From Escherichia coli (GTDB lineage: Bacteria > Pseudomonadota > Gammaproteobacteria > Enterobacterales > Enterobacteriaceae): a stretch of DNA of 64,000 bases. The notes under the pieces were generated by a model. It saw only the letters and a list, made by a program, of their open reading frames with translations, did no database searches and was not told the DNA's origin. The stretch lies in NCBI RefSeq assembly GCF_030013595.1, contig NZ_CP122768.1. The stretch is one strand, 5' to 3'. Positions 1 through 24,958 of the stretch are shown here, in pieces; position 1 is the stretch's first letter; every line of letters begins with the position of its first letter. A program made the translations under genes and the position numbers.

Positions 1-1506
1 AGCGGTTTTCTTACCCAAAAACCGGGGATCTGCCTGACAGTTTCTGCGCCAGGATTCCTCAATGGTTTGACCGCATTGGCCAACGCAACGGTAAATGGTT
101 TTCCGATGATCATGATTAGCGGCTCCAGCGACCGCGCGATCGTCGACCTACAGCAAGGTGATTATGAAGAGCTGGACCAAATGAATGCGGCAAAACCGTA
201 TGCCAAAGCAGCATTCCGCGTTAATCAGCCGCAGGATCTTGGCATTGCATTGGCACGCGCTATCCGGGTCTCAGTATCGGGTCGCCCTGGCGGAGTTTAT
301 CTTGATTTACCAGCAAATGTCCTGGCCGCGACGATGGAAAAAGACGAAGCGTTAACCACGATTGTAAAAGTTGAAAATCCGTCGCCAGCATTATTGCCAT
401 GCCCGAAGTCAGTCACTAGCGCAATTTCGCTTTTAGCAAAAGCTGAACGTCCATTAGTTATCCTTGGCAAAGGCGCGGCGTATTCACAAGCGGATGAACA
501 GCTTCGTGAATTTATTGAAAGTGCCCAGATTCCATTCCTGCCAATGTCTATGGCGAAAGGGATCCTCGAAGATACACATCCACTTTCTGCGGCAACTGCG
601 CGTTCGTTTGCCCTGGCAAATGCTGACGTTGTCATGCTTGTTGGTGCACGACTGAATTGGTTACTGGCACACGGTAAAAAAGGATGGGCGGCAGATACAC
701 AGTTTATTCAACTGGATATTGAACCGCAGGAAATTGACAGCAACCGCCCCATTGCTGTGCCAGTCGTTGGCGATATTGCATCCAGTATGCAAGGTATGCT
801 GGCAGAACTGAAACAAAACACATTTACGACTCCACTGGTATGGCGCGATATTTTAAATATCCACAAGCAGCAAAATGCACAAAAAATGCATGAAAAATTA
901 AGTACAGATACTCAACCATTAAATTACTTTAATGCATTAAGTGCTGTGCGCGATGTATTGCGCGAGAACCAGGATATTTATTTAGTTAATGAAGGTGCAA
1001 ATACCCTGGATAATGCACGAAATATTATTGATATGTATAAACCACGTCGCCGTCTGGATTGTGGTACCTGGGGTGTCATGGGCATCGGTATGGGCTATGC
1101 CATCGGTGCTAGCGTGACCTCTGGTTCTCCGGTTGTCGCCATTGAAGGTGATAGTGCTTTTGGTTTCAGTGGGATGGAGATTGAAACGATTTGTCGATAT
1201 AACCTGCCGGTGACGATCGTTATTTTTAATAATGGCGGCATCTACAGAGGAGACGGTGTTGATCTCAGTGGCGCTGGTGCACCATCACCAACAGATCTAT
1301 TGCACCATGCAAGGTATGACAAATTAATGGATGCGTTTCGTGGCGTTGGCTATAACGTCACTACGACAGATGAACTTCGTCATGCTTTAACCACCGGTAT
1401 TCAGTCGCGCAAACCGACCATTATTAATGTGGTCATCGACCCTGCAGCAGGAACTGAAAGTGGCCATATTACCAAACTTAACCCAAAACAAGTCGCTGGT
1501 AATTAA
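1..1506 (+). CDS. oxc: oxalyl-CoA decarboxylase (TPP enzyme), 5'-truncated by window edge
   Basis: Reading frame is open from position 1; translation has TPP-enzyme character; conserved position upstream of yfdV-yfdE as in E. coli K-12. Confidence 0.85.
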   Translation, partial: SGFLTQKPGICLTVSAPGFLNGLTALANATVNGFPMIMISGSSDRAIVDLQQGDYEELDQMNAAKPYAKAAFRVNQPQDLGIALARAIRVSVSGRPGGVYLDLPANVLAATMEKDEALTTIVKVENPSPALLPCPKSVTSAISLLAKAERPLVILGKGAAYSQADEQLREFIESAQIPFLPMSMAKGILEDTHPLSAATARSFALANADVVMLVGARLNWLLAHGKKGWAADTQFIQLDIEPQEIDSNRPIAVPVVGDIASSMQGMLAELKQNTFTTPLVWRDILNIHKQQNAQKMHEKLSTDTQPLNYFNALSAVRDVLRENQDIYLVNEGANTLDNARNIIDMYKPRRRLDCGTWGVMGIGMGYAIGASVTSGSPVVAIEGDSAFGFSGMEIETICRYNLPVTIVIFNNGGIYRGDGVDLSGAGAPSPTDLLHHARYDKLMDAFRGVGYNVTTTDELRHALTTGIQSRKPTIINVVIDPAAGTESGHITKLNPKQVAGN

Positions 1507-1575
1507 ATACTGACATCGTCTCCTCTTGCCAACTCATTATGCGATGGTGAGGGGACCCTTATCGGAAATACTATT

Positions 1576-2520
1576 ATGCTAACATTTTTTATTGGCGATT
1601 TATTGCCTATTATCGTAATCATGCTGTTGGGTTATTTTAGCGGCAGACGAGAAACTTTTTCAGAAGATCAAGCCCGGGCATTTAATAAACTGGTATTAAA
1701 CTACGCTCTTCCTGCGGCTCTATTTGTATCTATTACCCGAGCAAACAGGGAAATGATTTTTGCGGACACTCGTCTGACCCTTGTATCACTTGTGGTTATT
1801 GTCGGATGTTTCTTTTTCTCCTGGTTCGGTTGCTACAAATTTTTTAAACGTACTCATGCAGAAGCAGCAGTATGTGCATTAATTGCAGGTTCACCTACCA
1901 TTGGATTCCTGGGATTTGCAGTTCTCGATCCTATTTATGGTGATTCCGTATCAACAGGTTTAGTGGTAGCAATTATTTCAATTATCGTTAACGCAATTAC
2001 TATTCCTATTGGTCTGTATTTGCTGAATCCCTCCTCAGGAGCGGATGGTAAGAAGAATAGTAATCTGAGCGCATTAATTTCTGCGGCAAAGGAGCCAGTA
2101 GTATGGGCACCTGTTCTGGCAACGATCCTGGTGTTGGTTGGGGTAAAAATTCCGGCAGCATGGGACCCAACCTTTAATCTGATTGCGAAGGCTAACTCAG
2201 GGGTAGCGGTATTCGCTGCGGGGTTGACTCTGGCTGCACATAAATTCGAGTTCAGTGCCGAAATTGCTTATAACACCTTCCTGAAGCTAATTCTGATGCC
2301 ACTGGCGCTGCTTCTCGTTGGTATGGCATGTCATTTGAACAGCGAACATTTGCAGATGATGGTACTGGCAGGCGCCTTACCGCCGGCATTCTCCGGAATC
2401 ATTATTGCCAGCCGGTTTAATGTCTACACCCGCACTGGTACAGCGTCACTGGCTGTGAGCGTACTGGGCTTTGTCGTCACGGCTCCTTTGTGGATTTATG
2501 TCAGTCGACTGGTTTCATAA
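1576..2520 (+). CDS. yfdV: AEC-family membrane transporter YfdV
   Basis: 314-aa highly hydrophobic multi-helix ORF; synteny oxc-yfdV-yfdE. Confidence 0.8.
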
Positions 2521-2522
2521 TT

Positions 2523-2531
2523 AATCATGTT
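2523..2531. repeat. IS1 target-site duplication, left copy (aatcatgtt)
   Basis: Identical 9-mer immediately flanks both IS1 ends. Confidence 0.85.
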
Positions 2532-2546
2532 GGTAATGACTCCAAC

Positions 2547-3050
2547 TTACTGATAGTGTTTTATGTTCAGATAATGCCCGATGACCTTGTCATGCAGCTC
2601 CACCGATTTTGAGAACGACAGTGACTTCCGTCCCAGCCTTGCCAGATGTTGTCTCAGATTCAGGTTATGCCGCTCAATGCGCTGAGTATAACGCTTGCTG
2701 ATAACGTGCAGCTTTCCCTTCAGGCGTGATTCATACAGCGGCCAGCCATCCGTCATCCATACCACGACCTCAAAGGCCGACAGCAGGCTCAGAAGACGCT
2801 CCAGTGTGGCCAGAGTGCGTTCACCGAAGACGTGCGCCACAACCGTCCTCCGCATCCTGTCATACGCGTAAAACAGCCAGCGCTGACGTGATTTAGCACC
2901 GACGTAGCCCCACTGTTCGTCCATTTCAGCGCAGACAATCACATCACTGCCCGGTTGTATGCGCGAGGTTACCGACTGCGGCCTGAGTTTTTTAAGTGGC
3001 GGAAAATCGTGTTGAGGCCAACGCCAATAATGCGTGCACTGGCGCGACAT
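2547..3050 (-). CDS. insB: IS1 transposase InsB
   Basis: 167-aa ORF matching IS1 InsB, -1 frame relative to insA (InsAB' frameshift arrangement). Confidence 0.9.
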
Positions 3051-3244
3051 CCGACGCCATTCATGGCCATATCAATGATTTTCTGGTGCGTACCGGGCTG
3101 AGAGGCGGCGTAAGTGAACTGTAGTTGCCATGTTTTACGGCAGTGAGAGCAGAGATAGCGCTGATGTCCGGCGGTGCTTTTGCCGTTACGCACCACCCCG
3201 TCAGTAGCTGAACAGGAGGGACAGCTGATAGAAACAGAAGCCAC
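2969..3244 (-). CDS. insA: IS1 InsA (zinc-finger transposition inhibitor)
   Basis: 91-aa [43 protein letters not shown]... Confidence 0.9.
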
Positions 3245-3299
3245 TGGAGCACCTCAAAAACACCATCATACACTAAATCAGTAAGTTGGCAGCATCACC

Positions 3300-3308
3300 A
3301 ATCATGTT
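3300..3308. repeat. IS1 target-site duplication, right copy (aatcatgtt)
   Basis: Identical 9-mer to 2523..2531. Confidence 0.85.
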
Positions 3309-3370
3309 ATTGATTTTACATAAATGCCGAAGTGTCTTTTCACCTTCGGCTTTTTTCAAGGCATAAGCAA

Positions 3371-4516
3371 ATGACAAATAATGAATGCAAAGGGCCGTTT
3401 GAAGGCTTATTAGTTATCGATATGACACATGTCCTTAATGGACCTTTCGGAACTCAACTTCTTTGTAATATGGGCGCAAGGGTAATTAAAGTTGAGCCGC
3501 CGGGTCATGGTGATGATACCCGCACATTTGGTCCCTATGTGGATGGACAGTCACTCTATTACAGTTTTATTAATCATGGCAAAGAGAGTGTGGTTCTTGA
3601 TTTAAAGAATGATCACGATAAAAGTATATTTATAAATATGCTTAAACAAGCTGATGTATTAGCTGAGAATTTTCGCCCAGGTACAATGGAAAAACTGGGG
3701 TTTTCATGGGAAACGCTACAAGAAATCAACCCGCGTCTCATCTATGCTTCATCGTCAGGTTTTGGGCATACCGGCCCGCTAAAAGATGCTCCAGCCTACG
3801 ATACCATCATTCAGGCAATGAGCGGGATAATGATGGAAACAGGGTACCCTGATGCTCCGCCAGTGCGCGTGGGTACCTCTCTTGCGGATTTATGTGGCGG
3901 TGTCTATTTATTCAGTGGAATAGTGAGTGCACTTTATGGCCGCGAAAAGAGCCAGAGAGGGGCGCATGTCGATATAGCGATGTTTGATGCCACGCTGAGT
4001 TTTCTGGAGCATGGTCTGATGGCATATATTGCGACAGGGAAGTCACCACAACGCCTGGGAAATCGCCATCCCTACATGGCACCTTTTGATGTTTTTGATA
4101 CTCAGGATAAGCCGATTACTATTTGTTGTGGTAATGACAAGCTTTTTTCTGCGTTATGCCAGGCACTGGATCTGACGGAGCTGGTTGATGATCCCCGATT
4201 TATCAGCAATATTTTACGCGTACAAAACCAGGCTATTCTTAAACAATATATTGAGCGAACGTTAAAAACGCAGGCAGCTGAAGTTTGGTTAGCCAAAATA
4301 CATGAAGTTGGTGTGCCCGTCGCGCCGTTATTAAGTGTGGCTGAGGCCATTAATTTGCCACAAACTCAGGCGAGAAATATGTTGATTGAAGCCGGAGGAA
4401 TAATGATGCCAGGTAATCCGATAAAAATCAGCGGCTGCGCGGACCCGCATGTTATGCCGGGAGCGGCAACGCTCGACCAGCATGGGGAACAAATTCGCCA
4501 GGAGTTCTCATCATAA
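3371..4516 (+). CDS. yfdE: Family III CoA-transferase (acetyl-CoA:oxalate CoA-transferase YfdE)
   Basis: Translation MTNNECKGPFEGLLVIDMTHVLNGPFGTQLLCNMGARVIKVEPPG... is CaiB/BaiF family; start chosen at internal ATG of the 394-aa ORF. Confidence 0.8.
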   Translation: MTNNECKGPFEGLLVIDMTHVLNGPFGTQLLCNMGARVIKVEPPGHGDDTRTFGPYVDGQSLYYSFINHGKESVVLDLKNDHDKSIFINMLKQADVLAENFRPGTMEKLGFSWETLQEINPRLIYASSSGFGHTGPLKDAPAYDTIIQAMSGIMMETGYPDAPPVRVGTSLADLCGGVYLFSGIVSALYGREKSQRGAHVDIAMFDATLSFLEHGLMAYIATGKSPQRLGNRHPYMAPFDVFDTQDKPITICCGNDKLFSALCQALDLTELVDDPRFISNILRVQNQAILKQYIERTLKTQAAEVWLAKIHEVGVPVAPLLSVAEAINLPQTQARNMLIEAGGIMMPGNPIKISGCADPHVMPGAATLDQHGEQIRQEFSS

Positions 4517-4571
4517 ATGTAAGATGTGCTGGTAAATAGCTCCCACATTTGAATATTGTGGGAGCCGCTAT

Positions 4572-7500
4572 TTAGTCATTTTGTTGACAGAAAACAGCTA
4601 TCTCCTGGTCCAGCTCTGCAATGTGTTCTTTAACAGAGTTCAGCAGCTGAAGAATTTCAGGCTTACTGTCATCTGAAACAGGTGTTATTTCTAACTGATG
4701 GCTAATATTAATCAACTTTTGCAAATTCAGGATGTTAGCCGCACCGTGGATGCGATGAATACACTGATGGAAAGTTCTGTTGTCGCCAGCTTCTAGTGCA
4801 TGAAACGCAGCGGGTAGATCTTTATGCGTTTCATGCTGGAAAGTCATGAGAATCTCCTGCATCAGTTGTAGATCGTTCGCCGTATTATTTTTCAGGGCCT
4901 CGATATCAAGGTGGCGATACTGAGGTGCAATAGGCGCAACCTGGTGTAACTGACTTAAATGTGTTTTCAGTACATCCAGGGTCAACGGTTTGAACAAACA
5001 TAAGTTCATGCCGCAATTTAACCCTTTTTCACGTTCGTTAGCCTGTGCGTTGGCTGTAAGCCCCCAGATGGGTAAGGCCGAATTTTGCTCACGGAGTTTG
5101 CGAGTCAACTCAAAACCATCCATATTCGGCATATTAACGTCAGTAATAAGCAGATCATAATGTTGCATACTGACTTTGTGTAGCGCTTGCACACCATCAG
5201 TGGCTTCATCAACATCATATCCTAATAGATTTAGCTGGCGTTTGAGTAATAGCCTGTTGGTCGGATGATCATCCGCGATTAATATGCTCAACTTTTCAGG
5301 GAGTGTCATAGGTTGTTCTGCTTTTGCCTCGACAGTCGCCACTTGTTGGGTAATTTCTACCGGGATTGTGATCGTAAATGTCGTTCCTATGCCTGGATGA
5401 CTTTCTAATGACAAATCGCCCTGCATGTTTTTAATTAATTCTTTGCAGATCATTAAGCCTAAACCAGAACCTGTTTGCTGACGACCTGCACTTGTTTGGC
5501 TATAGCGTTTAAACAGTTGTTGTTGTTCTTCCTGCGATAATCCACTTCCAGAATCCATAATCGTCATTTTGATTACAGCGTGGTTGTCATCAATGTTAAC
5601 CAGGGAGGTCGTAATTTTTACTGCCCCCTCGGTGGTAAATTTGAGAGCATTGCTCAGTAAATTAGATAAGACCTGCTTAAACGCCTGAGGGTCGATCTTA
5701 ACCAGGTAATGTTCAGGAAACGTACTGCTGCAACTTAATGCGATGGATTTGCTTGCAGCAATCGCACCGAAAGAGTGACAAGTGTTCTGGACTAAAGTAG
5801 GGATATCGACCCATTGTGGTTGAAGTTGATAGTTACCCGACTCAATTTTGTCGACATCAAGGATTTCACCAATTAAGCCGAGGAGTGATTGTCCGGTGGC
5901 GTAGGCAAGTGAAATCGCCTCCACCCGTTGTTCCTTGCTAAGACCAGAACCCGACAGAAGTTCCAGGAAGCCCATAATGGAGCTTATTGGTGTTCTTATT
6001 TCGTGACTCATTGTTGCCAGAAACTGACTTTTTGCGACAGTTGCATTGATCGCTTTATTTCTCTCTACTTCGAGAGCGTGAATTAAATCACGTGTCTCGG
6101 TAATATCTTGCCAACCACAAATATAAACAGCATGATCGCTGGCTGGCAGATTGCATAATGTATGCCAGTGATTAATGCATCTTTTCTCGATGCCATTATC
6201 AATTTCAAATACCTGTGTGTATATTGTTCGATTTTCTTTCGTTTCTGCTGTGACTTCATGCGCATTAGAAAAAACATCTTTAAAGGGTGAGTCACTGTTT
6301 TCTAATGGTAACATTGCATTTTTGTAGTAATCCGCAGTGAAATAATGTTCAAAAGCACTATTATGACTAATGACATTACCTTGCCAGTTTACAACATAAG
6401 TTGGATTCGGTAAGGAATCCGAGAGTGCTTTTCGGAATGATATTTGGTTTTCTAAATCACCCTGAATGACTTTACGACGACGAACTGAGCGTAACAGGTA
6501 GAATCCCCATAAAAGGCTACTGCCAACTAATAAAACGGATAATGTCGTGACAATATAAAATTGCTCGCTATAGAGGTCCCATGTGTCAATGGTCACATTG
6601 GGCATTTTAATCCATTTTTCCGTCAGGCGCAGAACTTCGCTTGGGGGAATTGCATTCAGAGCTTTATTAATAATATCCTTAAGTTCCGGTTCTCCGCGAG
6701 GAAAAGCGAACGAAAGCGATGCATTCTGAACGCCGGGAATAAGAAAATGATAAAGTTCATTAGGATAGTAATGGTCGATCATGTAACGCGAATTTAGCTG
6801 TGTCGCGACCAGAGCATCAAGTTCACCTTCCTTGACCTTGTGAAATGCAGCGCTGGCGTTATCGACTTTTATCCACTCTACCTCCGGATACATCTCTTTT
6901 AATTGCGAATGCAGCTCATAATAATATGGAATGGCAACTTTCATTCCTTTTTTTAATGTTTGTTCACTGTCAGGCGCTTTTTGCATGACAAAAACGTAAG
7001 GCGTTGTTATGAAGGCTTCAGCAAATAAAACATTATTTTCTCTATCTTCACTATAAATAGCACCGGGTAATATATCCCATCCGCCGGGATTCAGCTGTGT
7101 TCCAGCATGGATATTGTGTGAAACGGTGATCGGAGAAAAATTTAAACCTGTTTGCAAGGTAATAATATTAAGAATATCCCCCATAACGCCCCGAACCGAG
7201 CCATTTTCATCCGTCATAGAATAGGGAGGGGAGTAAGGATTTTCCAACACCTTTAAATCGGGATGCTGCTTAATCCACTGTTTTTCATGTTCAGTGAGTT
7301 CTAATGGTTTGTTCAGAAAGGCCAGGTTTCCTGTATCAAGCCAATTTTGTGATACTTCATAGCGAACTTCGTTTGTCAAAGCATCAACAAATCGATTGAG
7401 TACTTCATTAAGAACGACAGATTCTTTTCTGGTCAAGAAAAAATTATATTGACGCGGTGAGTTATAATATTTCACTACATTTAAGGAGTGAGTGAAATAG

Positions 7501-8165
7501 CGGGAAATCATACTGCTGGTAATAATGTTACTACCAATAAAGTAATCATTCTGTCCGGCTGAGACGGATGCTAATGCCTGATATAAATTTGTAAAAGAGA
7601 TAATTGTTGCTTTTGGAAATGATTGATGAATTACCTCATCTGGAGGGTAATTTGCTACCCGAGCAATATTTACTGGTTTTGATGAGGTAAGCGGTCTCAT
7701 TGAATCGTGAAGGGTGGTGACCAGCGCCGGAAAGGTAATTATCAGCGGTTTGGTTGCAGCAATGTCATCATTAAGAGGCGGCGAAGCAACTAAATGTGAT
7801 AACACTATATCGACTTCCCCTTCTGTAAGCGCGTCCATTGCTTTTTGATGATCTGCGTATTCCCGGAGTGTTAATTTGATATTTAACGCTCTTTTTAAAA
7901 GATTTAAATAATCAGCATTAATACCACGAACCCGTTGCTGCGAATCGGTACGCAACAAAGTAGCCGTTTGGGACTTGTGTACTGCAATCACAAGATTTTT
8001 TTTGCTCGCTAACCAACGTAATTCCTTGTTGCTCAGACGTAGTGGATCAAGCGTGACACGGTTGTTACTACTGATGCCACGATATTCGATGTAATCTTCG
8101 TCTGCGAAACTTATAGTCGACCAAAGACCACAACAGAGAAGAATAATATAGGGTAAAAACTTCAT
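4572..8165 (-). CDS. evgS: Hybrid sensor histidine kinase EvgS (periplasmic solute-binding-like domains, HisKA/HATPase, receiver, HPt)
   Basis: 1197-aa ORF with SHEIRTP H-box, receiver domain and C-terminal HPt; immediately downstream of evgA. Confidence 0.9.
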   Translation of the reverse strand: MKFLPYIILLCCGLWSTISFADEDYIEYRGISSNNRVTLDPLRLSNKELRWLASKKNLVIAVHKSQTATLLRTDSQQRVRGINADYLNLLKRALNIKLTLREYADHQKAMDALTEGEVDIVLSHLVASPPLNDDIAATKPLIITFPALVTTLHDSMRPLTSSKPVNIARVANYPPDEVIHQSFPKATIISFTNLYQALASVSAGQNDYFIGSNIITSSMISRYFTHSLNVVKYYNSPRQYNFFLTRKESVVLNEVLNRFVDALTNEVRYEVSQNWLDTGNLAFLNKPLELTEHEKQWIKQHPDLKVLENPYSPPYSMTDENGSVRGVMGDILNIITLQTGLNFSPITVSHNIHAGTQLNPGGWDILPGAIYSEDRENNVLFAEAFITTPYVFVMQKAPDSEQTLKKGMKVAIPYYYELHSQLKEMYPEVEWIKVDNASAAFHKVKEGELDALVATQLNSRYMIDHYYPNELYHFLIPGVQNASLSFAFPRGEPELKDIINKALNAIPPSEVLRLTEKWIKMPNVTIDTWDLYSEQFYIVTTLSVLLVGSSLLWGFYLLRSVRRRKVIQGDLENQISFRKALSDSLPNPTYVVNWQGNVISHNSAFEHYFTADYYKNAMLPLENSDSPFKDVFSNAHEVTAETKENRTIYTQVFEIDNGIEKRCINHWHTLCNLPASDHAVYICGWQDITETRDLIHALEVERNKAINATVAKSQFLATMSHEIRTPISSIMGFLELLSGSGLSKEQRVEAISLAYATGQSLLGLIGEILDVDKIESGNYQLQPQWVDIPTLVQNTCHSFGAIAASKSIALSCSSTFPEHYLVKIDPQAFKQVLSNLLSNALKFTTEGAVKITTSLVNIDDNHAVIKMTIMDSGSGLSQEEQQQLFKRYSQTSAGRQQTGSGLGLMICKELIKNMQGDLSLESHPGIGTTFTITIPVEITQQVATVEAKAEQPMTLPEKLSILIADDHPTNRLLLKRQLNLLGYDVDEATDGVQALHKVSMQHYDLLITDVNMPNMDGFELTRKLREQNSALPIWGLTANAQANEREKGLNCGMNLCLFKPLTLDVLKTHLSQLHQVAPIAPQYRHLDIEALKNNTANDLQLMQEILMTFQHETHKDLPAAFHALEAGDNRTFHQCIHRIHGAANILNLQKLINISHQLEITPVSDDSKPEILQLLNSVKEHIAELDQEIAVFCQQND

Positions 8166-8169
8166 GTGG

Positions 8170-8784
8170 TTAGCCGATTTTGTTACGTTGTGCGAATGTG
8201 TAAAGATCCATCAGTGATTTACATTCTAATTTTTCCATCAGGCGACTTTTATAAGTGCTGACAGTTTTGTTGCTGATGAACATTTTTTCCGCAATGTCAT
8301 TATTATCCTTGCCATCAAGAATATATCGCATGACACTAATTTCTTGTTTCGATAAGGAGTCGAGTTTTTGCTGGTCGGACGTTAAACTTCCAACAAACCG
8401 GTTGAGAGAGAAGGGGAAATAGCAGTAGCCATTTTTTGCAGCTTCAATAGCCGCAATGATATTGTTCATGCCTTCTTTTTTACTCACGAATCCATTAGCG
8501 CCAGCATCAGCACAATGTTTCCCGTAAAAATGGTCATTTTTAGCGGAGACGATAATAATAATTCCGCTATATTGGCGCTTCCTCAGCGTTTCTAACACCT
8601 GGATACCGTTAACTCCGGGGATATCGACATCAATGATGACGATATCAGGTTTAAGTGTTTCCACCCGCTGAACGGCACTTCCCCCTTCAGTCAACTCCGC
8701 TAAGATTTCAATATCGTTTTTGATCAATAAATTACGAATTGCTGCGATAGCAAGAGGATGGTCATCAATAATTATTGCGTTCAT
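8170..8784 (-). CDS. evgA: Response regulator EvgA (receiver + LuxR-type HTH)
   Basis: 204-aa ORF MNAIIIDDHPLAIAAIRNLL...; operon with evgS. Confidence 0.9.
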   Translation of the reverse strand: MNAIIIDDHPLAIAAIRNLLIKNDIEILAELTEGGSAVQRVETLKPDIVIIDVDIPGVNGIQVLETLRKRQYSGIIIIVSAKNDHFYGKHCADAGANGFVSKKEGMNNIIAAIEAAKNGYCYFPFSLNRFVGSLTSDQQKLDSLSKQEISVMRYILDGKDNNDIAEKMFISNKTVSTYKSRLMEKLECKSLMDLYTFAQRNKIG

Positions 8785-9008
8785 AGATTATTCCCTTGGC
8801 AATGAAGCATCTCCCTTCTCCCTGTAGTAATACAGACATAAGGCATCATCTCATTTTCTCAATAAAAATAAGAAAATTTGAGCTTCCTTTAAGATAATTC
8901 GACAAGTATACCATATAAATAGTCGGCATAAATGAAATGTCAACAATAAAATCAGGGATTGTACCGATGATTTATAGTTTCACATTAGCACTATAAGTCT
9001 TCTCACTA

Positions 9009-9026
9009 ATCCTACATGCGTAAGAA
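9009..9026. promoter_or_regulatory. Candidate EvgA box (ATCCTACA-TG-CGTAAGAA imperfect inverted repeat) in evgA-emrK divergent region
   Basis: Near-match to the recalled EvgA consensus TTCPyTACA...TGTAPuGAA; sits in the divergent promoter region. Confidence 0.35.
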
Positions 9027-9199
9027 TTGTATTGCAAAAGCTACGGTTTAGTCCTCTGTTGTTTTTTTTGCACCTCATTTAAATTAGGCCTCCAACGTTC
9101 CTGGGACAATGTGCAACACATGCACTGTGTTTGATATGAAGAATGAATACTCTTTTCATTCAATTCATAAATTTCATCTATGCGAAATGAGAGATAATA

Positions 9200-10363
9200 G
9201 TGGAACAGATTAATTCAAATAAAAAACATTCTAACAGAAGAAAATACTTTTCTTTATTGGCGGTAGTTTTATTTATTGCGTTTTCAGGTGCCTATGCCTA
9301 TTGGTCAATGGAATTAGAAGACATGATTAGTACAGATGATGCCTATGTCACGGGGAATGCAGATCCAATTTCTGCACAAGTTTCAGGCAGCGTCACTGTC
9401 GTTAATCATAAAGATACGAACTACGTTCGACAGGGTGACATTTTAGTCTCACTGGATAAGACTGATGCCACTATCGCACTCAATAAAGCTAAAAATAATC
9501 TGGCAAATATTGTTCGGCAAACGAATAAACTGTACTTACAGGATAAACAATACAGTGCCGAAGTCGCTTCAGCACGTATTCAGTATCAACAATCTTTAGA
9601 AGATTATAACCGTCGTGTGCCTTTAGCGAAGCAGGGGGTTATTTCAAAAGAAACGCTGGAGCATACCAAAGATACGTTAATAAGTAGCAAAGCGGCATTG
9701 AATGCCGCTATCCAGGCTTATAAAGCGAATAAAGCTTTAGTAATGAACACACCATTAAACCGTCAGCCACAAGTCGTTGAAGCTGCGGATGCAACCAAAG
9801 AAGCCTGGTTGGCGCTTAAACGTACGGATATTAAGAGTCCGGTTACCGGCTATATTGCCCAGCGAAGTGTTCAGGTCGGCGAAACAGTGAGTCCCGGACA
9901 ATCGTTAATGGCTGTCGTACCGGCACGTCAAATGTGGGTTAATGCTAACTTTAAAGAAACACAACTCACGGATGTACGGATTGGTCAATCGGTCAATATT
10001 ATCAGCGATCTTTATGGTGAAAATGTTGTGTTTCATGGTCGGGTGACAGGGATCAATATGGGAACCGGCAATGCGTTCTCCTTATTACCTGCACAAAATG
10101 CGACAGGGAACTGGATCAAAATCGTTCAGCGTGTACCGGTTGAAGTTTCTCTTGATCCAAAAGAACTCATGGAACATCCCTTACGTATTGGTTTATCGAT
10201 GACAGCAACTATTGATACGAAGAACGAAGACATTGCCGAGATGCCTGAGCTGGCTTCAACCGTGACGTCCATGCCTGCTTATACCAGTAAGGCTTTAGTT
10301 ATCGATACCAGTCCGATAGAAAAAGAAATTAGCAACATTATTTCGCATAATGGACAACTTTAA
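9200..10363 (+). CDS. emrK: Multidrug efflux membrane-fusion protein EmrK (EmrA family)
   Basis: 387-aa ORF with N-terminal membrane anchor and HlyD-like coiled coil; overlaps emrY start. Confidence 0.85.
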   Translation: MEQINSNKKHSNRRKYFSLLAVVLFIAFSGAYAYWSMELEDMISTDDAYVTGNADPISAQVSGSVTVVNHKDTNYVRQGDILVSLDKTDATIALNKAKNNLANIVRQTNKLYLQDKQYSAEVASARIQYQQSLEDYNRRVPLAKQGVISKETLEHTKDTLISSKAALNAAIQAYKANKALVMNTPLNRQPQVVEAADATKEAWLALKRTDIKSPVTGYIAQRSVQVGETVSPGQSLMAVVPARQMWVNANFKETQLTDVRIGQSVNIISDLYGENVVFHGRVTGINMGTGNAFSLLPAQNATGNWIKIVQRVPVEVSLDPKELMEHPLRIGLSMTATIDTKNEDIAEMPELASTVTSMPAYTSKALVIDTSPIEKEISNIISHNGQL

Positions 10364-11901
10364 TGGCAATCACTAAATCAACTCCGGCACCATTAACCGG
10401 TGGGACGTTATGGTGCGTCACTATTGCATTGTCATTAGCGACGTTTATGCAAATGTTGGATTCCACTATTTCTAACGTCGCAATACCGACAATATCTGGC
10501 TTTCTGGGAGCATCAACAGACGAAGGCACCTGGGTTATCACTTCGTTTGGCGTAGCAAATGCCATTGCGATCCCTGTTACCGGCAGGCTGGCACAAAGAA
10601 TAGGCGAATTAAGATTATTTTTACTTTCAGTCACTTTTTTTTCGCTGTCTTCCTTAATGTGTAGCCTATCGACCAATCTTGATGTGCTGATATTTTTTAG
10701 AGTCGTTCAGGGGTTAATGGCGGGGCCGTTAATTCCACTGTCACAGAGTTTATTATTAAGGAATTATCCGCCAGAAAAAAGAACATTTGCTTTGGCATTA
10801 TGGTCAATGACCGTAATTATCGCTCCGATATGTGGGCCGATATTGGGCGGCTATATTTGCGATAACTTTAGCTGGGGTTGGATATTTTTAATCAATGTCC
10901 CTATGGGGATTATCGTCCTGACATTATGCTTAACCTTACTTAAAGGAAGAGAAACTGAGACTTCACCGGTCAAAATGAATCTACCAGGACTGACCCTGTT
11001 AGTGCTCGGTGTTGGTGGCTTGCAAATTATGCTCGATAAAGGGCGCGATCTGGATTGGTTCAACTCGAGTACAATAATAATACTAACAGTAGTGTCAGTT
11101 ATTTCTCTGATCTCTTTAGTCATTTGGGAGTCGACCTCAGAGAATCCGATTCTTGACCTCAGTTTGTTTAAGTCCCGTAATTTCACCATTGGTATTGTGA
11201 GTATCACATGCGCGTATTTATTTTACTCTGGGGCAATAGTCCTTATGCCGCAATTACTCCAGGAAACGATGGGGTATAATGCGATATGGGCCGGACTTGC
11301 CTATGCGCCCATCGGCATCATGCCGCTATTAATATCACCTTTGATAGGACGTTATGGCAACAAAATTGATATGCGGTTATTGGTGACATTTAGTTTTTTA
11401 ATGTATGCGGTTTGCTATTACTGGCGTTCTGTGACATTTATGCCAACGATTGATTTTACAGGCATCATTTTGCCACAGTTTTTCCAGGGATTCGCCGTTG
11501 CCTGTTTCTTTTTACCCTTAACAACGATTTCGTTTTCAGGGTTGCCAGATAATAAATTTGCCAATGCCTCGAGTATGAGTAATTTTTTTCGTACCTTGTC
11601 AGGATCAGTTGGTACGTCGTTGACAATGACGCTGTGGGGACGACGCGAATCGTTACACCATAGTCAGTTGACAGCAACCATCGATCAATTTAACCCCGCG
11701 TTTAATTCATCGTCACAAATTATGGATAAATACTATGGTTCGCTTTCAGGAGTTCTTAATGAAATTAATAGTGAAATAACCCAGCAGTCACTTTCTATTT
11801 CTGCAAATGAGATTTTCCGTATGGCGGCTATTGCTTTTATCTTACTTACGGTTTTGGTTTGGTTTGCGAAACCGCCGTTTACAGCGAAAGGCGTTGGGTG
11901 A
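10363..11901 (+). CDS. emrY: MFS multidrug efflux pump EmrY (EmrB family, 14 TMS)
   Basis: 512-aa polytopic membrane ORF; synteny evgAS-emrKY. Confidence 0.9.
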   Translation: MAITKSTPAPLTGGTLWCVTIALSLATFMQMLDSTISNVAIPTISGFLGASTDEGTWVITSFGVANAIAIPVTGRLAQRIGELRLFLLSVTFFSLSSLMCSLSTNLDVLIFFRVVQGLMAGPLIPLSQSLLLRNYPPEKRTFALALWSMTVIIAPICGPILGGYICDNFSWGWIFLINVPMGIIVLTLCLTLLKGRETETSPVKMNLPGLTLLVLGVGGLQIMLDKGRDLDWFNSSTIIILTVVSVISLISLVIWESTSENPILDLSLFKSRNFTIGIVSITCAYLFYSGAIVLMPQLLQETMGYNAIWAGLAYAPIGIMPLLISPLIGRYGNKIDMRLLVTFSFLMYAVCYYWRSVTFMPTIDFTGIILPQFFQGFAVACFFLPLTTISFSGLPDNKFANASSMSNFFRTLSGSVGTSLTMTLWGRRESLHHSQLTATIDQFNPAFNSSSQIMDKYYGSLSGVLNEINSEITQQSLSISANEIFRMAAIAFILLTVLVWFAKPPFTAKGVG

Positions 11902-12008: not shown

Positions 12009-13337
12009 TTAGCGGCCTTTTGCCAGATATTGCTCCATCTCTTCTTCCGGCACCATTCCACCTCCCGTCGCCCACACCAGATGAGTGGCATTACGCAGTT
12101 GTTCTGCGCTGAAACCGTGCATCTGTTGGTAACTTACTGATGCGCACACGCGCTGAGGCCCGGCCATACCCGCCAGTGCCGAAGGTTCAAGACGAATACC
12201 TTCTTCCTGCGCCAGCCAGCCAAGCATGTCATACATGGTTTGATCGCTAAGGGTATAGAAGCCATCCAGTAGACGCTCCATTGCCCGCCCGACAAAGCCT
12301 GATGCGCGACCAACTGCAAGGCCATCCGCTGCGGTAAGGTTGTCGATACCAATATCCTGAACAGAAATCTGATCGTGTAATCCTGTATGGACGCCTAACA
12401 GCATACAAGGGGAGTGCGTTGGTTCGGCAAAAAAGCAGTGAACATGATCGCCAAATGCCAGTTTAAGCCCGAATGCGACGCCACCAGGACCACCGCCAAC
12501 ACCACACGGCAGATAGACAAACAGAGGGTTATCAGCATCGACAATACGACCTTGCTCGGCAAATTGCGCTTTAAGACGCTGGCCTGCGACGGAATACCCA
12601 AGGAACAACGTGCGGGAATTCTCGTCATCAATAAAGAAACAGTTCGGGTCAGACTGCGCTGCTTTACGTCCTTCCTCGACTGCAACACCATAATCTTGCT
12701 CATATTCCACGACCGTAACGCCATGGCTGCGCAGTTTCGCTTTTTTCCATGCCCGGGCATCAGAAGACATATGTACTGTCACCTTAAAGCCAATGCGGGC
12801 GCTCATAATGCCGATTGATAACCCCAGATTTCCGGTTGAGCCCACAGCAATGCTGTATTGGCTAAAGAACTGTTTAAACTCCGGAGAAAGCAGTTTGCTG
12901 TAGTCATCTTCAGGCGTCAGCAACCCCGCTTCCAGAGCCAGTTTTTCTGCATGTGCCAGGACTTCATAAATCCCGCCGCGTGCTTTTATGGAGCCGGAAA
13001 TGGGCAAATGGCTATCTTTTTTCAGTAGCAGTTGCCCGCTGATCGGTTGTTGATATTCCTTTTCCAGCCGTTTTTGCATAGCCGGAATGGCAACCAGTTC
13101 TGATTCAATAATCCCCCCAGTCGCAGCAGTTTCAGGAAATGCTTTTGCCAGATAGGGTGCAAAACGGGATAAGCGCGCATGGGCGTCCTGAACATCCTGT
13201 TCGGTCAGGCCAACATAAGGTAAACCTTCAGCCAATGAGGTCGTGCCAGGATTAAACCAGGTGGTTTCTTTAAGAGCAACCAGATCCTTTACCAACGGAT
13301 ACTGGGCGATGAGCGAGTTCATTTTAGCGTTTTCCAT
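12009..13337 (-). CDS. dsdA: D-serine ammonia-lyase (D-serine dehydratase, PLP-dependent)
   Basis: 442-aa [34 protein letters not shown]... with PLP-lysine motif SGSIKARGG. Confidence 0.9.
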
Positions 13338-13354
13338 AGTACGTCTCTTTGCGC

Positions 13355-13573
13355 TTAGATGATAAATGACAGCAGGAATGTGCCCGCCAGAGCGACGACT
13401 GAAGCGATAAATGTCGCGGTCGTATAGTATTTAAATGTTTCATTGAGCGTAGCGCCGCAATATTGCTTCACCAGCCAGAAAAGCGAGTCCGTAACGATCG
13501 TGCAGCCAATCGCACCTGAACCGATAGCAATCGCAATAATTTCCGGGCTGATGTCGGGATACAGCGGCAGCAC
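13355..13573 (-). pseudogene. dsdX: 3' remnant of D-serine permease gene dsdX (GntP family), truncated by the csc island
   Basis: 72-aa hydrophobic ORF immediately upstream of dsdA with no full-length permease; csc genes begin ~240 bp further on. Confidence 0.55.
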
Positions 13574-13815
13574 AATGATCCATATTTATATTTTCTTCTC
13601 CAGATTGGCGATGCCAGTTGGCATGTTTTACCTACTTGTCTACATGGTTACTCGTTGGCGAGAACAGAGGCGGAATTGGGTACAATTGTCCGGGAATTAT
13701 TGTTATTTTTTATTGTATTGCCGTGTCGGGTGATAGGGCGTCGAGAATATCGTTGGATCTCGCCAGTGACGTCTGTTTCTGCTACAGTGCCCGTTTTACG
13801 GCAAACGGCTTGGGT

Positions 13816-14811
13816 ATGGCTTCATTAAAGGATGTCGCACGCCTGGCGGGAGTGTCGATGATGACAGTCTCCCGGGTGATGCATAATGCAGAATCTGTGC
13901 GTCCTGCAACGCGTAACCGCGTATTGCAGGCAATCCAGACCCTGAATTATGTTCCTGATCTTTCCGCCCGTAAGATGCGCGCTCAAGGACGTAAGCCGTC
14001 GACTCTCGCCGTGCTGGCGCAGGACACGGCCACCACTCCTTTCTCTGTTGATATTCTGCTTGCCATTGAGCAAACCGCCAGCGAGTTTGGCTGGAATAGT
14101 TTTTTAATCAATATTTTTTCTGAAGATGACGCTGCCCGCGCGGCACGTCAGCTGCTTGCCCACCGTCCGGATGGCATTATCTATACTACAATGGGGCTGC
14201 GACATATCACGCTGCCTGAGTCTCTGTATGGTGAAAATATTGTATTGGCGAACTGTGTGGCGGATGACCCAGCGTTACCCAGTTATATCCCTGATGATTA
14301 CACTGCACAATATGAATCAACACAGCATTTGCTCGCGGCGGGCTATCGTCAACCGTTATGCTTCTGGCTACCGGAAAGTGCGTTGGCAACAGGGTATCGT
14401 CGGCAGGGATTTGAGCAGGCCTGGCGTGATGCTGGACGAGATCTGGCTGAGGTGAAACAATTTCACATGGCAACAGGTGATGATCACTACACCGATCTCG
14501 CAAGTTTACTCAATGCCCACTTCAAATCGGGCAAACCAGATTTTGATGTTCTGATATGTGGTAACGATCGCGCAGCCTTTGTGGCTTATCAGGTTCTTTT
14601 GGCGAAGGGGGTACGTATCCCGAAGGATGTCGCCGTAATGGGCTTTGATAATCTGGTTGGCGTCGGGCATCTGTTTTTACCGCCGCTGACCACAATTCAG
14701 CTTCCACATGACATTATCGGGCGGGAAGCTGCATTGCATATTATTGAAGGTCGTGAAGGGGGAAGAGTGACGCGGATCCCTTGCCCGCTGTTGATCCGTT
14801 GTTCCACCTGA
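13816..14811 (+). CDS. cscR: LacI-family sucrose operon repressor CscR
   Basis: N-terminal HTH MASLKDVARLAGVSMMTVSRVMHN... plus periplasmic-binding-protein-like sugar-binding core; start set at internal ATG 13816. Confidence 0.8.
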   Translation: MASLKDVARLAGVSMMTVSRVMHNAESVRPATRNRVLQAIQTLNYVPDLSARKMRAQGRKPSTLAVLAQDTATTPFSVDILLAIEQTASEFGWNSFLINIFSEDDAARAARQLLAHRPDGIIYTTMGLRHITLPESLYGENIVLANCVADDPALPSYIPDDYTAQYESTQHLLAAGYRQPLCFWLPESALATGYRRQGFEQAWRDAGRDLAEVKQFHMATGDDHYTDLASLLNAHFKSGKPDFDVLICGNDRAAFVAYQVLLAKGVRIPKDVAVMGFDNLVGVGHLFLPPLTTIQLPHDIIGREAALHIIEGREGGRVTRIPCPLLIRCST

Positions 14812-14818
14812 TATTATG

Positions 14819-16252
14819 TTAACCCAGTTGCCAGAGTGCTCCATGTTGCAGCACAGCCACTCCGTGGGAGGCATAGAGCGACAGTTCCCGTTCTTCTGGC
14901 TGCGGATATATTCGGCTACTCATCACCGCCTCCCCGTCGTTAATAAATACTTCCACGGATGATGTATCGATAAATATCCTTAGGGCGAGCATGTCACCCT
15001 GCGGGAGGGGAATACTACGGTAGCCATCTAAATTCTCGTGTGGGTAATACCGCCACAAAACAAGTCGCTCAGATTGGTTATCAATATACAGCCGCATTCC
15101 AGCGCCGAGCTGTAATCCGTAATGTTCGGCATCACTGTTCTTCAGCGCCCACTGCAACTGAATCTCAACTGCTTGCGCGTTTTCCTGCAAAACATATTTA
15201 TTGCTGATTGTGCGGGGAGAGATAGATTGATGCTGCTGGCGTAACGACTCAGCTTCGTGTACCGGGCGTTGTAGGAGTTTGCCATTGCTCTCTGATAGCT
15301 CGCGCGCCAGCGTCATGCAGCCTGCCCAGCCTTCACGTTTTGAGGGCATTGGCGATTCCCACATATCCATCCAGCCGATAACAATACGCCGACCATCCTT
15401 CGCTACAAAGCTTTGTGGTGCATAAAAGTCATGCCCGTTATCAAGTTCAGTAAAATGCCCGGATTGTGCAAAAAGTCGTCCTGGCGACCACATTCCGGGT
15501 ATTACGCCACTTTGAAAGCGATTTCGATAACTGTATCCCTCGGCATTCATTCCCTGCGGGGAAAACATCAGATAATGCTGATCGCCAAGGCTGAAAAAGT
15601 CCGGACATTCCCACATATAGCTTTCACCCGCATCAGCGTGGGCCAGTACGCGATCGAAAGTCCATTCACGCAATGAACTGCCGCGATAAAGCAGGATCTG
15701 CCCCGTGTTGCCTGGGTCTTTCGCCCCGACTACCATCCACCATGTGTCGGCTTCACGCCACACTTTAGGATCGCGGAAGTGCATGATGCCTTCTGGTGGA
15801 GTGAGGATCACACCCTGTTTCTCGAAATGAATACCATCCCGACTGGTAGCCAGACATTGTACTTCGCGAATTGCATCGTCATTACCTGCACCATCGAGCC
15901 AGACGTGTCCGGTGTAGATAAGTGAGAGGACACCATTGTCATCGACAGCACTACCTGAAAAACACCCGTCTTTGTCATTCTCGTCTCCTGGCGCTAGCGC
16001 AATAGGCTCATGCTGCCAGTGGATCATATCGTCGCTGGTGGCATGTCCCCAGTGCATTGGCCCCCAGTGTTCGCTCATCGGGTGATGTTGATAAAACGCG
16101 TGATAACGATCGTTAAACCAGATCAGGCCGTTTGGATCGTTCATCCACCCGGCAGGAGGCGCGAGGTGAAAATGGGGATAGAAAGTGTTACCTCGGCGCT
16201 CGTGAAGTTTTGCTAGTGCGTTTTGCGCCGCATGCAATCGAGATTGCGTCAT
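14819..16252 (-). CDS. cscA: Sucrose-6-phosphate hydrolase / invertase CscA (GH32)
   Basis: GH32 signature WMNDPNGL near N-terminus; ~477 aa. Confidence 0.85.
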   Translation of the reverse strand: MTQSRLHAAQNALAKLHERRGNTFYPHFHLAPPAGWMNDPNGLIWFNDRYHAFYQHHPMSEHWGPMHWGHATSDDMIHWQHEPIALAPGDENDKDGCFSGSAVDDNGVLSLIYTGHVWLDGAGNDDAIREVQCLATSRDGIHFEKQGVILTPPEGIMHFRDPKVWREADTWWMVVGAKDPGNTGQILLYRGSSLREWTFDRVLAHADAGESYMWECPDFFSLGDQHYLMFSPQGMNAEGYSYRNRFQSGVIPGMWSPGRLFAQSGHFTELDNGHDFYAPQSFVAKDGRRIVIGWMDMWESPMPSKREGWAGCMTLARELSESNGKLLQRPVHEAESLRQQHQSISPRTISNKYVLQENAQAVEIQLQWALKNSDAEHYGLQLGAGMRLYIDNQSERLVLWRYYPHENLDGYRSIPLPQGDMLALRIFIDTSSVEVFINDGEAVMSSRIYPQPEERELSLYASHGVAVLQHGALWQLG

Positions 16253-16285
16253 TTTAATCATCCTGGTTAAGCAAATTTGGTGAAT

Positions 16286-24685: not shown

Positions 24686-24958
24686 TCATCTTGCTGTCAG
24701 CTGTTTGGATTTCCTGTAGCCTGCCGCGTAAATGGCTACATTTGGAAGACAAGTTGAGCCTTCATATTTTCTGGTCAACGTTGTCAGTGTTATTACTTCT
24801 GCTCTCATTACTGGTTTGCGTTTGCATTGTAAGACCACTCGTGAAGGGGTTGGCCTGTGTAGCTTGTCAGAGCTGATCGCCTCCTGACTTTGCAGGTTTG
24901 CACGACGAGCTCTACGGCGAGAAGCTGCGGTGCCTTTAAATTCTGTTTTTCTGGACAT
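24686..24958 (-). CDS. N-like transcription antiterminator (arginine-rich motif; P22 gp24-like C-terminus)
   Basis: Arg-rich motif ASRRRARRA near the N-terminus; C-terminus ...VAIYAAGYRKSKQLTAR resembles P22 gp24; start set at internal Met. Confidence 0.65.
   Translation of the reverse strand: MSRKTEFKGTAASRRRARRANLQSQEAISSDKLHRPTPSRVVLQCKRKPVMRAEVITLTTLTRKYEGSTCLPNVAIYAAGYRKSKQLTAR

Follow-up and report, generated by a model that had tools for sequence, protein, structure and literature searches.

EvgS and EvgA were named for their similarity to BvgS and BvgA, and the homologous regulator BvgA of Bordetella, as it acts at the Pfha and Pptx promoters, is among the closest systems described. 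In Bordetella, further low-affinity BvgA dimers follow at 22-bp intervals along one helical face as far as the -35, and the heptads of a BvgA site abut, as in TAAGAAA/TTTCCTA (the primary site of Pfha is TAAGAAATTTCCTA). The lux boxes of LuxR and TraR, inverted repeats of ~20 bp, resemble the EvgA box in that a repeat of 18-20 bp is likewise read by a dimer with a GerE/LuxR helix-turn-helix. Lux boxes are usually located at about -42.5 (class II), whereas the EvgA box considered here is placed at about -74.5. The nearest relatives are the EvgA boxes of Escherichia coli K-12 at emrK/evgA, ydeP, safA-ydeO, yfdX and yegR, which have in common an 18-bp layout, a polarity and the spacing to a TCYT motif and a -10-like element.

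An EvgA site has been found at all of the genes that EvgA regulates directly, and induction of emrK, which serves as a reporter for EvgA, is lost without evgA or evgS. At the level of the promoter, published work citing Kato et al (2000) describes binding of EvgA to the emrKY promoter region and direct regulation of emrKY. The product of the operon, the EmrKY-TolC pump, contributes to tolerance of bile salts and drugs and to the survival of Shigella in macrophages. EvgA is not the only protein to bind the region, since CpxR shifts a fragment spanning the whole of the evgA-emrK spacer in EMSA; emrKY is also up 3-4 fold in a cpxRA mutant.

The stretch of DNA analysed here, which we refer to as the window, comprises 64 kb of E. 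coli sequence. A preliminary description, made from the letters of the sequence, had proposed a candidate EvgA box in the divergent region between evgAS and emrKY, and the site does indeed lie at 9009-9026 within the 415-bp spacer between evgA on the minus strand and emrK on the plus strand. It reads ATCCTACATGCGTAAGAA (18 bases, read directly from the sequence). The features of the locus are as follows:

4572-8165, minus strand: evgS, sensor kinase (ORF list and annotation of a 99.8% identical E. coli record)
8170-8784, minus strand: evgA (ORF list and annotation of the same 99.8% identical record)
9009-9026, plus strand: EvgA box (assigned from the match, the rebuilt consensus, conservation and polarity)
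9009-9016: half-site ATCCTACA of the box
9017-9018: TG between the half-sites
9019-9026: half-site CGTAAGAA of the box
9200-10363, plus strand: emrK (ORF list and annotation of the same 99.8% identical record)
10363-11901, plus strand: emrY, which with emrK forms the efflux-pump operon, the presumed target of the box

The EvgA encoded next to the box is identical to that of K-12 at 204 of 204 residues, and has a Response_reg domain and a GerE/LuxR helix-turn-helix domain. As a consensus for its binding site we used TTCYTACA-N2-TGTARGAA, which we take to be that of Masuda and Church (2002/2003). The preliminary description had called the site a near match to the EvgA inverted repeat, and this was borne out: 14 of the 16 specified positions agree with TTCYTACANNTGTARGAA, the two mismatches being at 9009, where A replaces T, and at 9019, where C replaces T. 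The inverted repeat itself is imperfect, with pairing at five of the eight arm positions. No other match with up to three mismatches was found on either strand of the 64-kb window. This count is weak evidence taken alone, because 0.92 sites per window are expected by chance at that threshold. At up to two mismatches, however, the expectation falls to 0.06 sites per 64-kb window, and six of 100 shuffles gave one. We judge the box to be non-random because of its two-mismatch quality together with its position inside a single 415-bp spacer.

None of the papers searched in full text prints the EvgA consensus or the exact site sequence, and the consensus was therefore rebuilt independently from K-12. 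The regions used were those upstream of ydeP, safA-ydeO, yfdX, yegR and gadE, plus the emrK-evgA spacer, with ydeP, safA-ydeO, yfdX, yegR and emrK/evgA taken as direct EvgA targets. A match to the consensus with one or two mismatches occurs once in each of the upstream regions of ydeP, safA, yfdX, yegR and emrK/evgA; upstream of yfdX there is in addition a second, weaker copy 38 bp downstream of the first. The 798-bp region upstream of gadE has no box with up to four mismatches and was for this reason left out of the motif set. A search that made no use of the consensus returned, as the best shared 18-mer, the same motif shifted by one base; its summed distance was 14, compared with 17-22 in 40 shuffles, and the search picked the place of the box in the emrK-evgA spacer. 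The consensus is a real shared element of EvgA-controlled promoters. With a symmetrised leave-one-out matrix, built only from the four sites other than emrK, 9009-9026 ranks first of the ~64,000 positions of the window with a score of 17.3, which was reached in three of 300 random 64-kb sequences. The second-best site, 24733-24750, has a score of 12.6, within random expectation (mean maximum 13.0). Neither the consensus scan nor the matrix scan revealed a second box-like site in the evgA-emrK spacer.

The pattern of conservation was investigated in an alignment of ten sequences: the window, K-12, six further E. coli sequences (down to 95% spacer identity) and two diverged relatives, L007 and L008. 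Of the 18 columns of the box 14 are invariant, compared with 56% of columns across the whole spacer. Variation is confined to the two outermost bases, one of the two bases between the arms and the initial base of the proximal arm. No invariant run in the evgA-emrK spacer is longer than GTAAGAATTGTATT, 14 bases at 9020-9033, which covers the emrK-proximal arm and includes a conserved flank:

9027-9033, plus strand: TTGTATT, completing the invariant run that begins with 9020-9026

This flank is specific to emrK and is absent from the other EvgA boxes. The form ATCCTACA-NG-CGTAAGAA is kept in all eight of the aligned E. coli sequences. Two departures from the consensus are found in these E. coli copies, the window included: one at the outermost base, the other at the base with which the proximal arm begins. 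At the second of these positions the two diverged relatives have the T of the consensus.

The orthologous site in K-12, ATCCTACAGGCGTAAGAA, lies at the same place in the same spacer, and the window differs from it only at the first base between the arms; the K-12 form is also that of each of the six further E. coli genomes. At this position, 9017, the window has T, K-12 and seven other aligned sequences have G and L008 has C. Of 5426 complete E. coli genomes, 5398 have the evgA-emrK spacer and 369 (~7%) the T form at 9017, a count that is about the number of genomes with at least 99% spacer identity to the window. The T-for-G variant looks neutral, though it might tune affinity. As regards the box, the emrKY control region of this strain is intact, the difference from K-12 being confined to one base that is presumably not contacted. 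Some of the matches in the complete-genome set are plasmid-borne (14 of those to the 36-bp sequence, 20 of those to the spacer). One such copy is on plasmid pCFSAN061762 (NZ_CP042902.1, 114 kb), where positions 1850-7556 of the extracted locus hold an IS1-flanked copy of evgAS with the box, and IS1 is found in place of emrK.

Relatives were scanned using one genome per species with EvgA. The diverged Escherichia L007, whose EvgA is 98% identical, has a perfect box, TTCTTACACCTGTAGGAA. Its distance to the evgA ATG is 232.5 bp, compared with 233.5 bp in the window, and the distance from the box to the emrK start codon, 182.5-184.5 bp, is conserved as well as that to evgA. L008, labelled Yersinia vastinensis and with an EvgA 94% identical, has a box with one mismatch and a divergent emrK. 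An emrK-evgA-evgS cluster occupies positions 1-5612 of this locus, which comes from a 590-kb contig of 'Yersinia vastinensis' IP38594 (NZ_CACVAF010000001.1). One review, in contrast, confines EvgS/EvgA to E. coli and Shigella; L008 is not simple E. coli contamination, because its spacer is clearly diverged. In a Rhizobium cauense assembly, a 398-bp contig (NZ_JAEUAT010000078.1) encodes EvgA residues 1-114 with 100% identity; this contig most likely stems from contamination with E. coli. Distant homologues of EvgA, 66-71% identical and found in Hafnia, Klebsiella, Enterobacter and Buttiauxella, have a box-like repeat upstream of their own gene (GTCCTACGTATGTAGGCG, TTCCTACAGCTGTCATCC, which occurs twice, and TTCCTACGTCTGTAGTCC; at L009 2065-2082, L010 203-220, L011 2413-2430 and L013 2196-2213). 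The presence of these repeats suggests that autoregulatory boxes are conserved across the EvgA family.

To describe the geometry of the promoters, each box was oriented to its gene and positions were counted from the promoter-proximal end of the box. The GTAAGAA arm is the proximal one in ydeP, safA and emrK, the last of these in K-12, the window, L007 and L008; yfdX has GTAAGAC/GTAAGAT, nearly identical to it, and yegR has GTAGGAA on both arms. A TCYT motif is present at +26 to +29 past the box in ydeP, safA, yegR and emrK (again in K-12, the window, L007 and L008), that is in four of the five promoters, yfdX having no TCYT at +26. A TAnnnT hexamer starting at +53 or +54 is present in all five, in yfdX when counted from its proximal box. 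Neither coincidence was reproduced in 2000 shuffles (0/2000 for TCYT at +26 and 0/2000 for TAnnnT at +53/54), though ydeP and safA may agree in part because their promoters have a common ancestor and not through independent constraint. In the window the two elements are:

9052-9055, plus strand: TCCT element, 26-29 nt past the end of the box and 42 bp downstream of TCCT in the distal half-site
9080-9085, plus strand: putative -10 of emrK, TAAATT, starting 54 nt past the end of the box

With this -10 the transcription start of emrK is predicted at ~9092 (+/-3), which would place the centre of the box near -74.5. By analogy with BvgA, the TCCT at 9052-9055 may be a secondary half-site for EvgA, just upstream of the -35 position. 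There is no usable -35 hexamer for emrK, and a simple sigma-70 scan of the spacer returned no emrK promoter, as would be expected of a promoter that depends on an activator; the only match of that scan, 8923-8952 on the plus strand, was no better than in shuffles and was ignored. The leader RNA of ydeP used by Gorelik et al. starts at -178 from the start codon, which corresponds to an offset of +66 past the box, the start expected for a -10 at +53 to +58. We also considered a class II placement, with the box near -41.5 and TTTAGT at 9047-9052 as the -10, for which yegR has TATAAT at the same offset. This was rejected because all five promoters have TAnnnT at +53/54 and because the 178-nt ydeP leader fits that spacing and not a class II one. 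Within the predicted leader of emrK, at 9111-9125 on the plus strand, a short, GC-containing hairpin runs into a T-rich tail (GTGCAACACATGCAC TGTGTTTGAT), the sole terminator-like match in the spacer.

At EvgA and BvgA promoters alike, the high-affinity inverted repeat stands well upstream and the promoter has no good -35, and the two regulators use the same hexamer words, TAAGAA and TTCCTA. The half-site-like TCYT of emrK lies 42 bp, or two times 21, downstream of the distal arm, which may be compared with the 22-bp array of BvgA. The arrangement of the half-sites differs, however. While the BvgA heptads abut, the order is reversed in the EvgA box, with six bases between, TCCTA-CANNCG-TAAGA, and abutting heptads of the BvgA type were not found at the EvgA box. 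We also considered TAAGAAT/TGTATTG as a BvgA-style pair of adjoining heptads but rejected this, since the other EvgA boxes lack the flank TTGTATT. A search of emrK for a BvgA-like array gave only the conserved TCYT 42 bp downstream of the distal arm; no recognisable middle site was seen by eye. Multiple EvgA dimers at emrK are something that we infer from the comparison, and the third position would fall near -32.5, not abutting the -35 as in BvgA.

It is possible, though we put this forward only tentatively, that the EvgA promoters of emrK, ydeP, safA and yegR, and probably of yfdX through its proximal box, follow a rigid three-part design, in which the box would lie near -74.5, a TCYT would follow 42 bp (four helical turns) downstream, and a TAnnnT -10 would stand without a -35. 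If so, phosphorylated EvgA would work like phosphorylated BvgA, starting at a strong site upstream and spreading to weak contacts downstream that fall on the same face of the helix. From the fixed spacing, the position of the emrK start and a second EvgA contact can be predicted in a form open to testing.

On the evgA side of the spacer, the following elements were identified:

8943-8916, minus strand: core promoter 1 of evgA, with -35 TTGACA at 8943-8938, -10 TATTTA at 8921-8916 and a spacing of N16, start near 8908 (hexamers by reading)
8913-8905, minus strand: core promoter 2 of evgA, extended -10 TGgTATACT, start near 8898 (hexamers by reading)
8810-8781, minus strand: evgL, leader peptide MLHCQGNNL, its stop codon overlapping the start codon of evgA

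Transcripts of evgA have been described as starting at -114 and -124 from the ATG, with mention of sigma-S and sigma-70 starts, and a function of the evgL leader is described in the same paper (Gorelik et al., PMC11210196). In the window these starts correspond to 8898 and 8908 respectively, ~110-120 bp from the centre of the box. The leader peptide differs from that of K-12, MLHCKGNNL, by the substitution K5Q.

Taken together, the evidence indicates that 9009-9026 is very probably the high-affinity operator of a dimer of phosphorylated EvgA that activates emrKY; the bases contacted we infer from the sequence. The EvgA box identity given in the preliminary description is supported by the rebuilt K-12 consensus, the consensus-free search, the leave-one-out matrix, the conservation and the promoter geometry. 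An alternative is that the EvgA-bound box serves mainly in autoregulation of evgAS, with emrKY being controlled elsewhere or indirectly. The site lies in a divergent spacer shared by both operons and upstream of each, and its distance to the evgA ATG is nearly constant between the window and the diverged Escherichia, but the spacing to the emrK start codon is conserved to the same degree. Further, the box is ~110-120 bp from the evgA starts, and neither the TCYT at +26 nor the TAnnnT at +53/54 is present in that direction, whereas both are present toward emrK, with the arm polarity the same as in ydeP, safA and yfdX. As the spacer has no second box-like site, and as the literature calls emrK a direct EvgA target and uses it as an EvgA reporter, we consider it improbable that evgAS is the main target. 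That the site is a chance near-palindrome in an AT-rich spacer, with no regulatory role, might be proposed from its imperfect repeat and from the roughly one match per 64 kb expected at up to three mismatches. At the two mismatches observed, however, the expectation is far lower, and much less again for one 415-bp spacer. The matrix built without emrK ranks the site first, its conservation is well above the background of the spacer, including at a locus where the spacer has otherwise diverged heavily, and its geometry is shared with unrelated EvgA promoters, making coincidence extremely improbable.

The box could also be the operator of another regulator, either CpxR or a protein of the LuxR family that reads TAAGAA/TTCCTA, such as RcsB. 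The EMSA shift of the spacer fragment by CpxR and the 3-4 fold rise of emrKY in the cpxRA mutant fit with the former, yet no GTAAA-N5-GTAAA with up to two mismatches overlaps 9009-9026. The only match at this threshold in the spacer, 8862-8876, is off the box and the count in the window is near chance, and a reading of 9009-9026 as a CpxR box was rejected, there being no CpxR direct repeat at the site. The same hexamers as in the EvgA box are used in the RcsAB box and in the primary BvgA site of Pfha. In those sites, however, the hexamers abut in the opposite order, while here TCCTA and TAAGA are separated by six bases in exactly the arrangement of the EvgA-regulated promoters. An operator for a regulator other than EvgA would thus seem highly improbable.

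Returning to the reading of 9009-9026 as an EvgA operator for emrKY, we propose that mild acid together with alkali metal would activate EvgS, leading to phosphorylation of EvgA. Phosphorylated EvgA, a NarL/LuxR-type regulator encoded next to the box, would then bind the imperfect inverted repeat as a dimer and, from a position ~74 bp upstream of the predicted start of emrK, turn on the weak emrKY promoter, which lacks a -35. By analogy with BvgA, a secondary contact of EvgA at the conserved TCCT beside the -35 position would help. The same box may in addition exert feedback on evgAS, but the way it is oriented and spaced fits emrK. As judged from its sequence, the operator is one already known, and hence ordinary, that would act mainly on emrKY. 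Through it, the sensing of acid and alkali metal by EvgS would be coupled to the expression of EmrKY-TolC, an efflux pump. The box leaves current understanding unchanged, the modest addition being the fixed spacing common to the EvgA promoters.

Beyond the operon, downstream of emrY, the region at ~12009-16261 contains dsdA, after which, as judged from strain NRZ14408, come a truncated remnant of dsdX, a regulator of the LacI family and cscA. The arrangement resembles an insertion for sucrose utilisation at the dsd locus, absent there in K-12.
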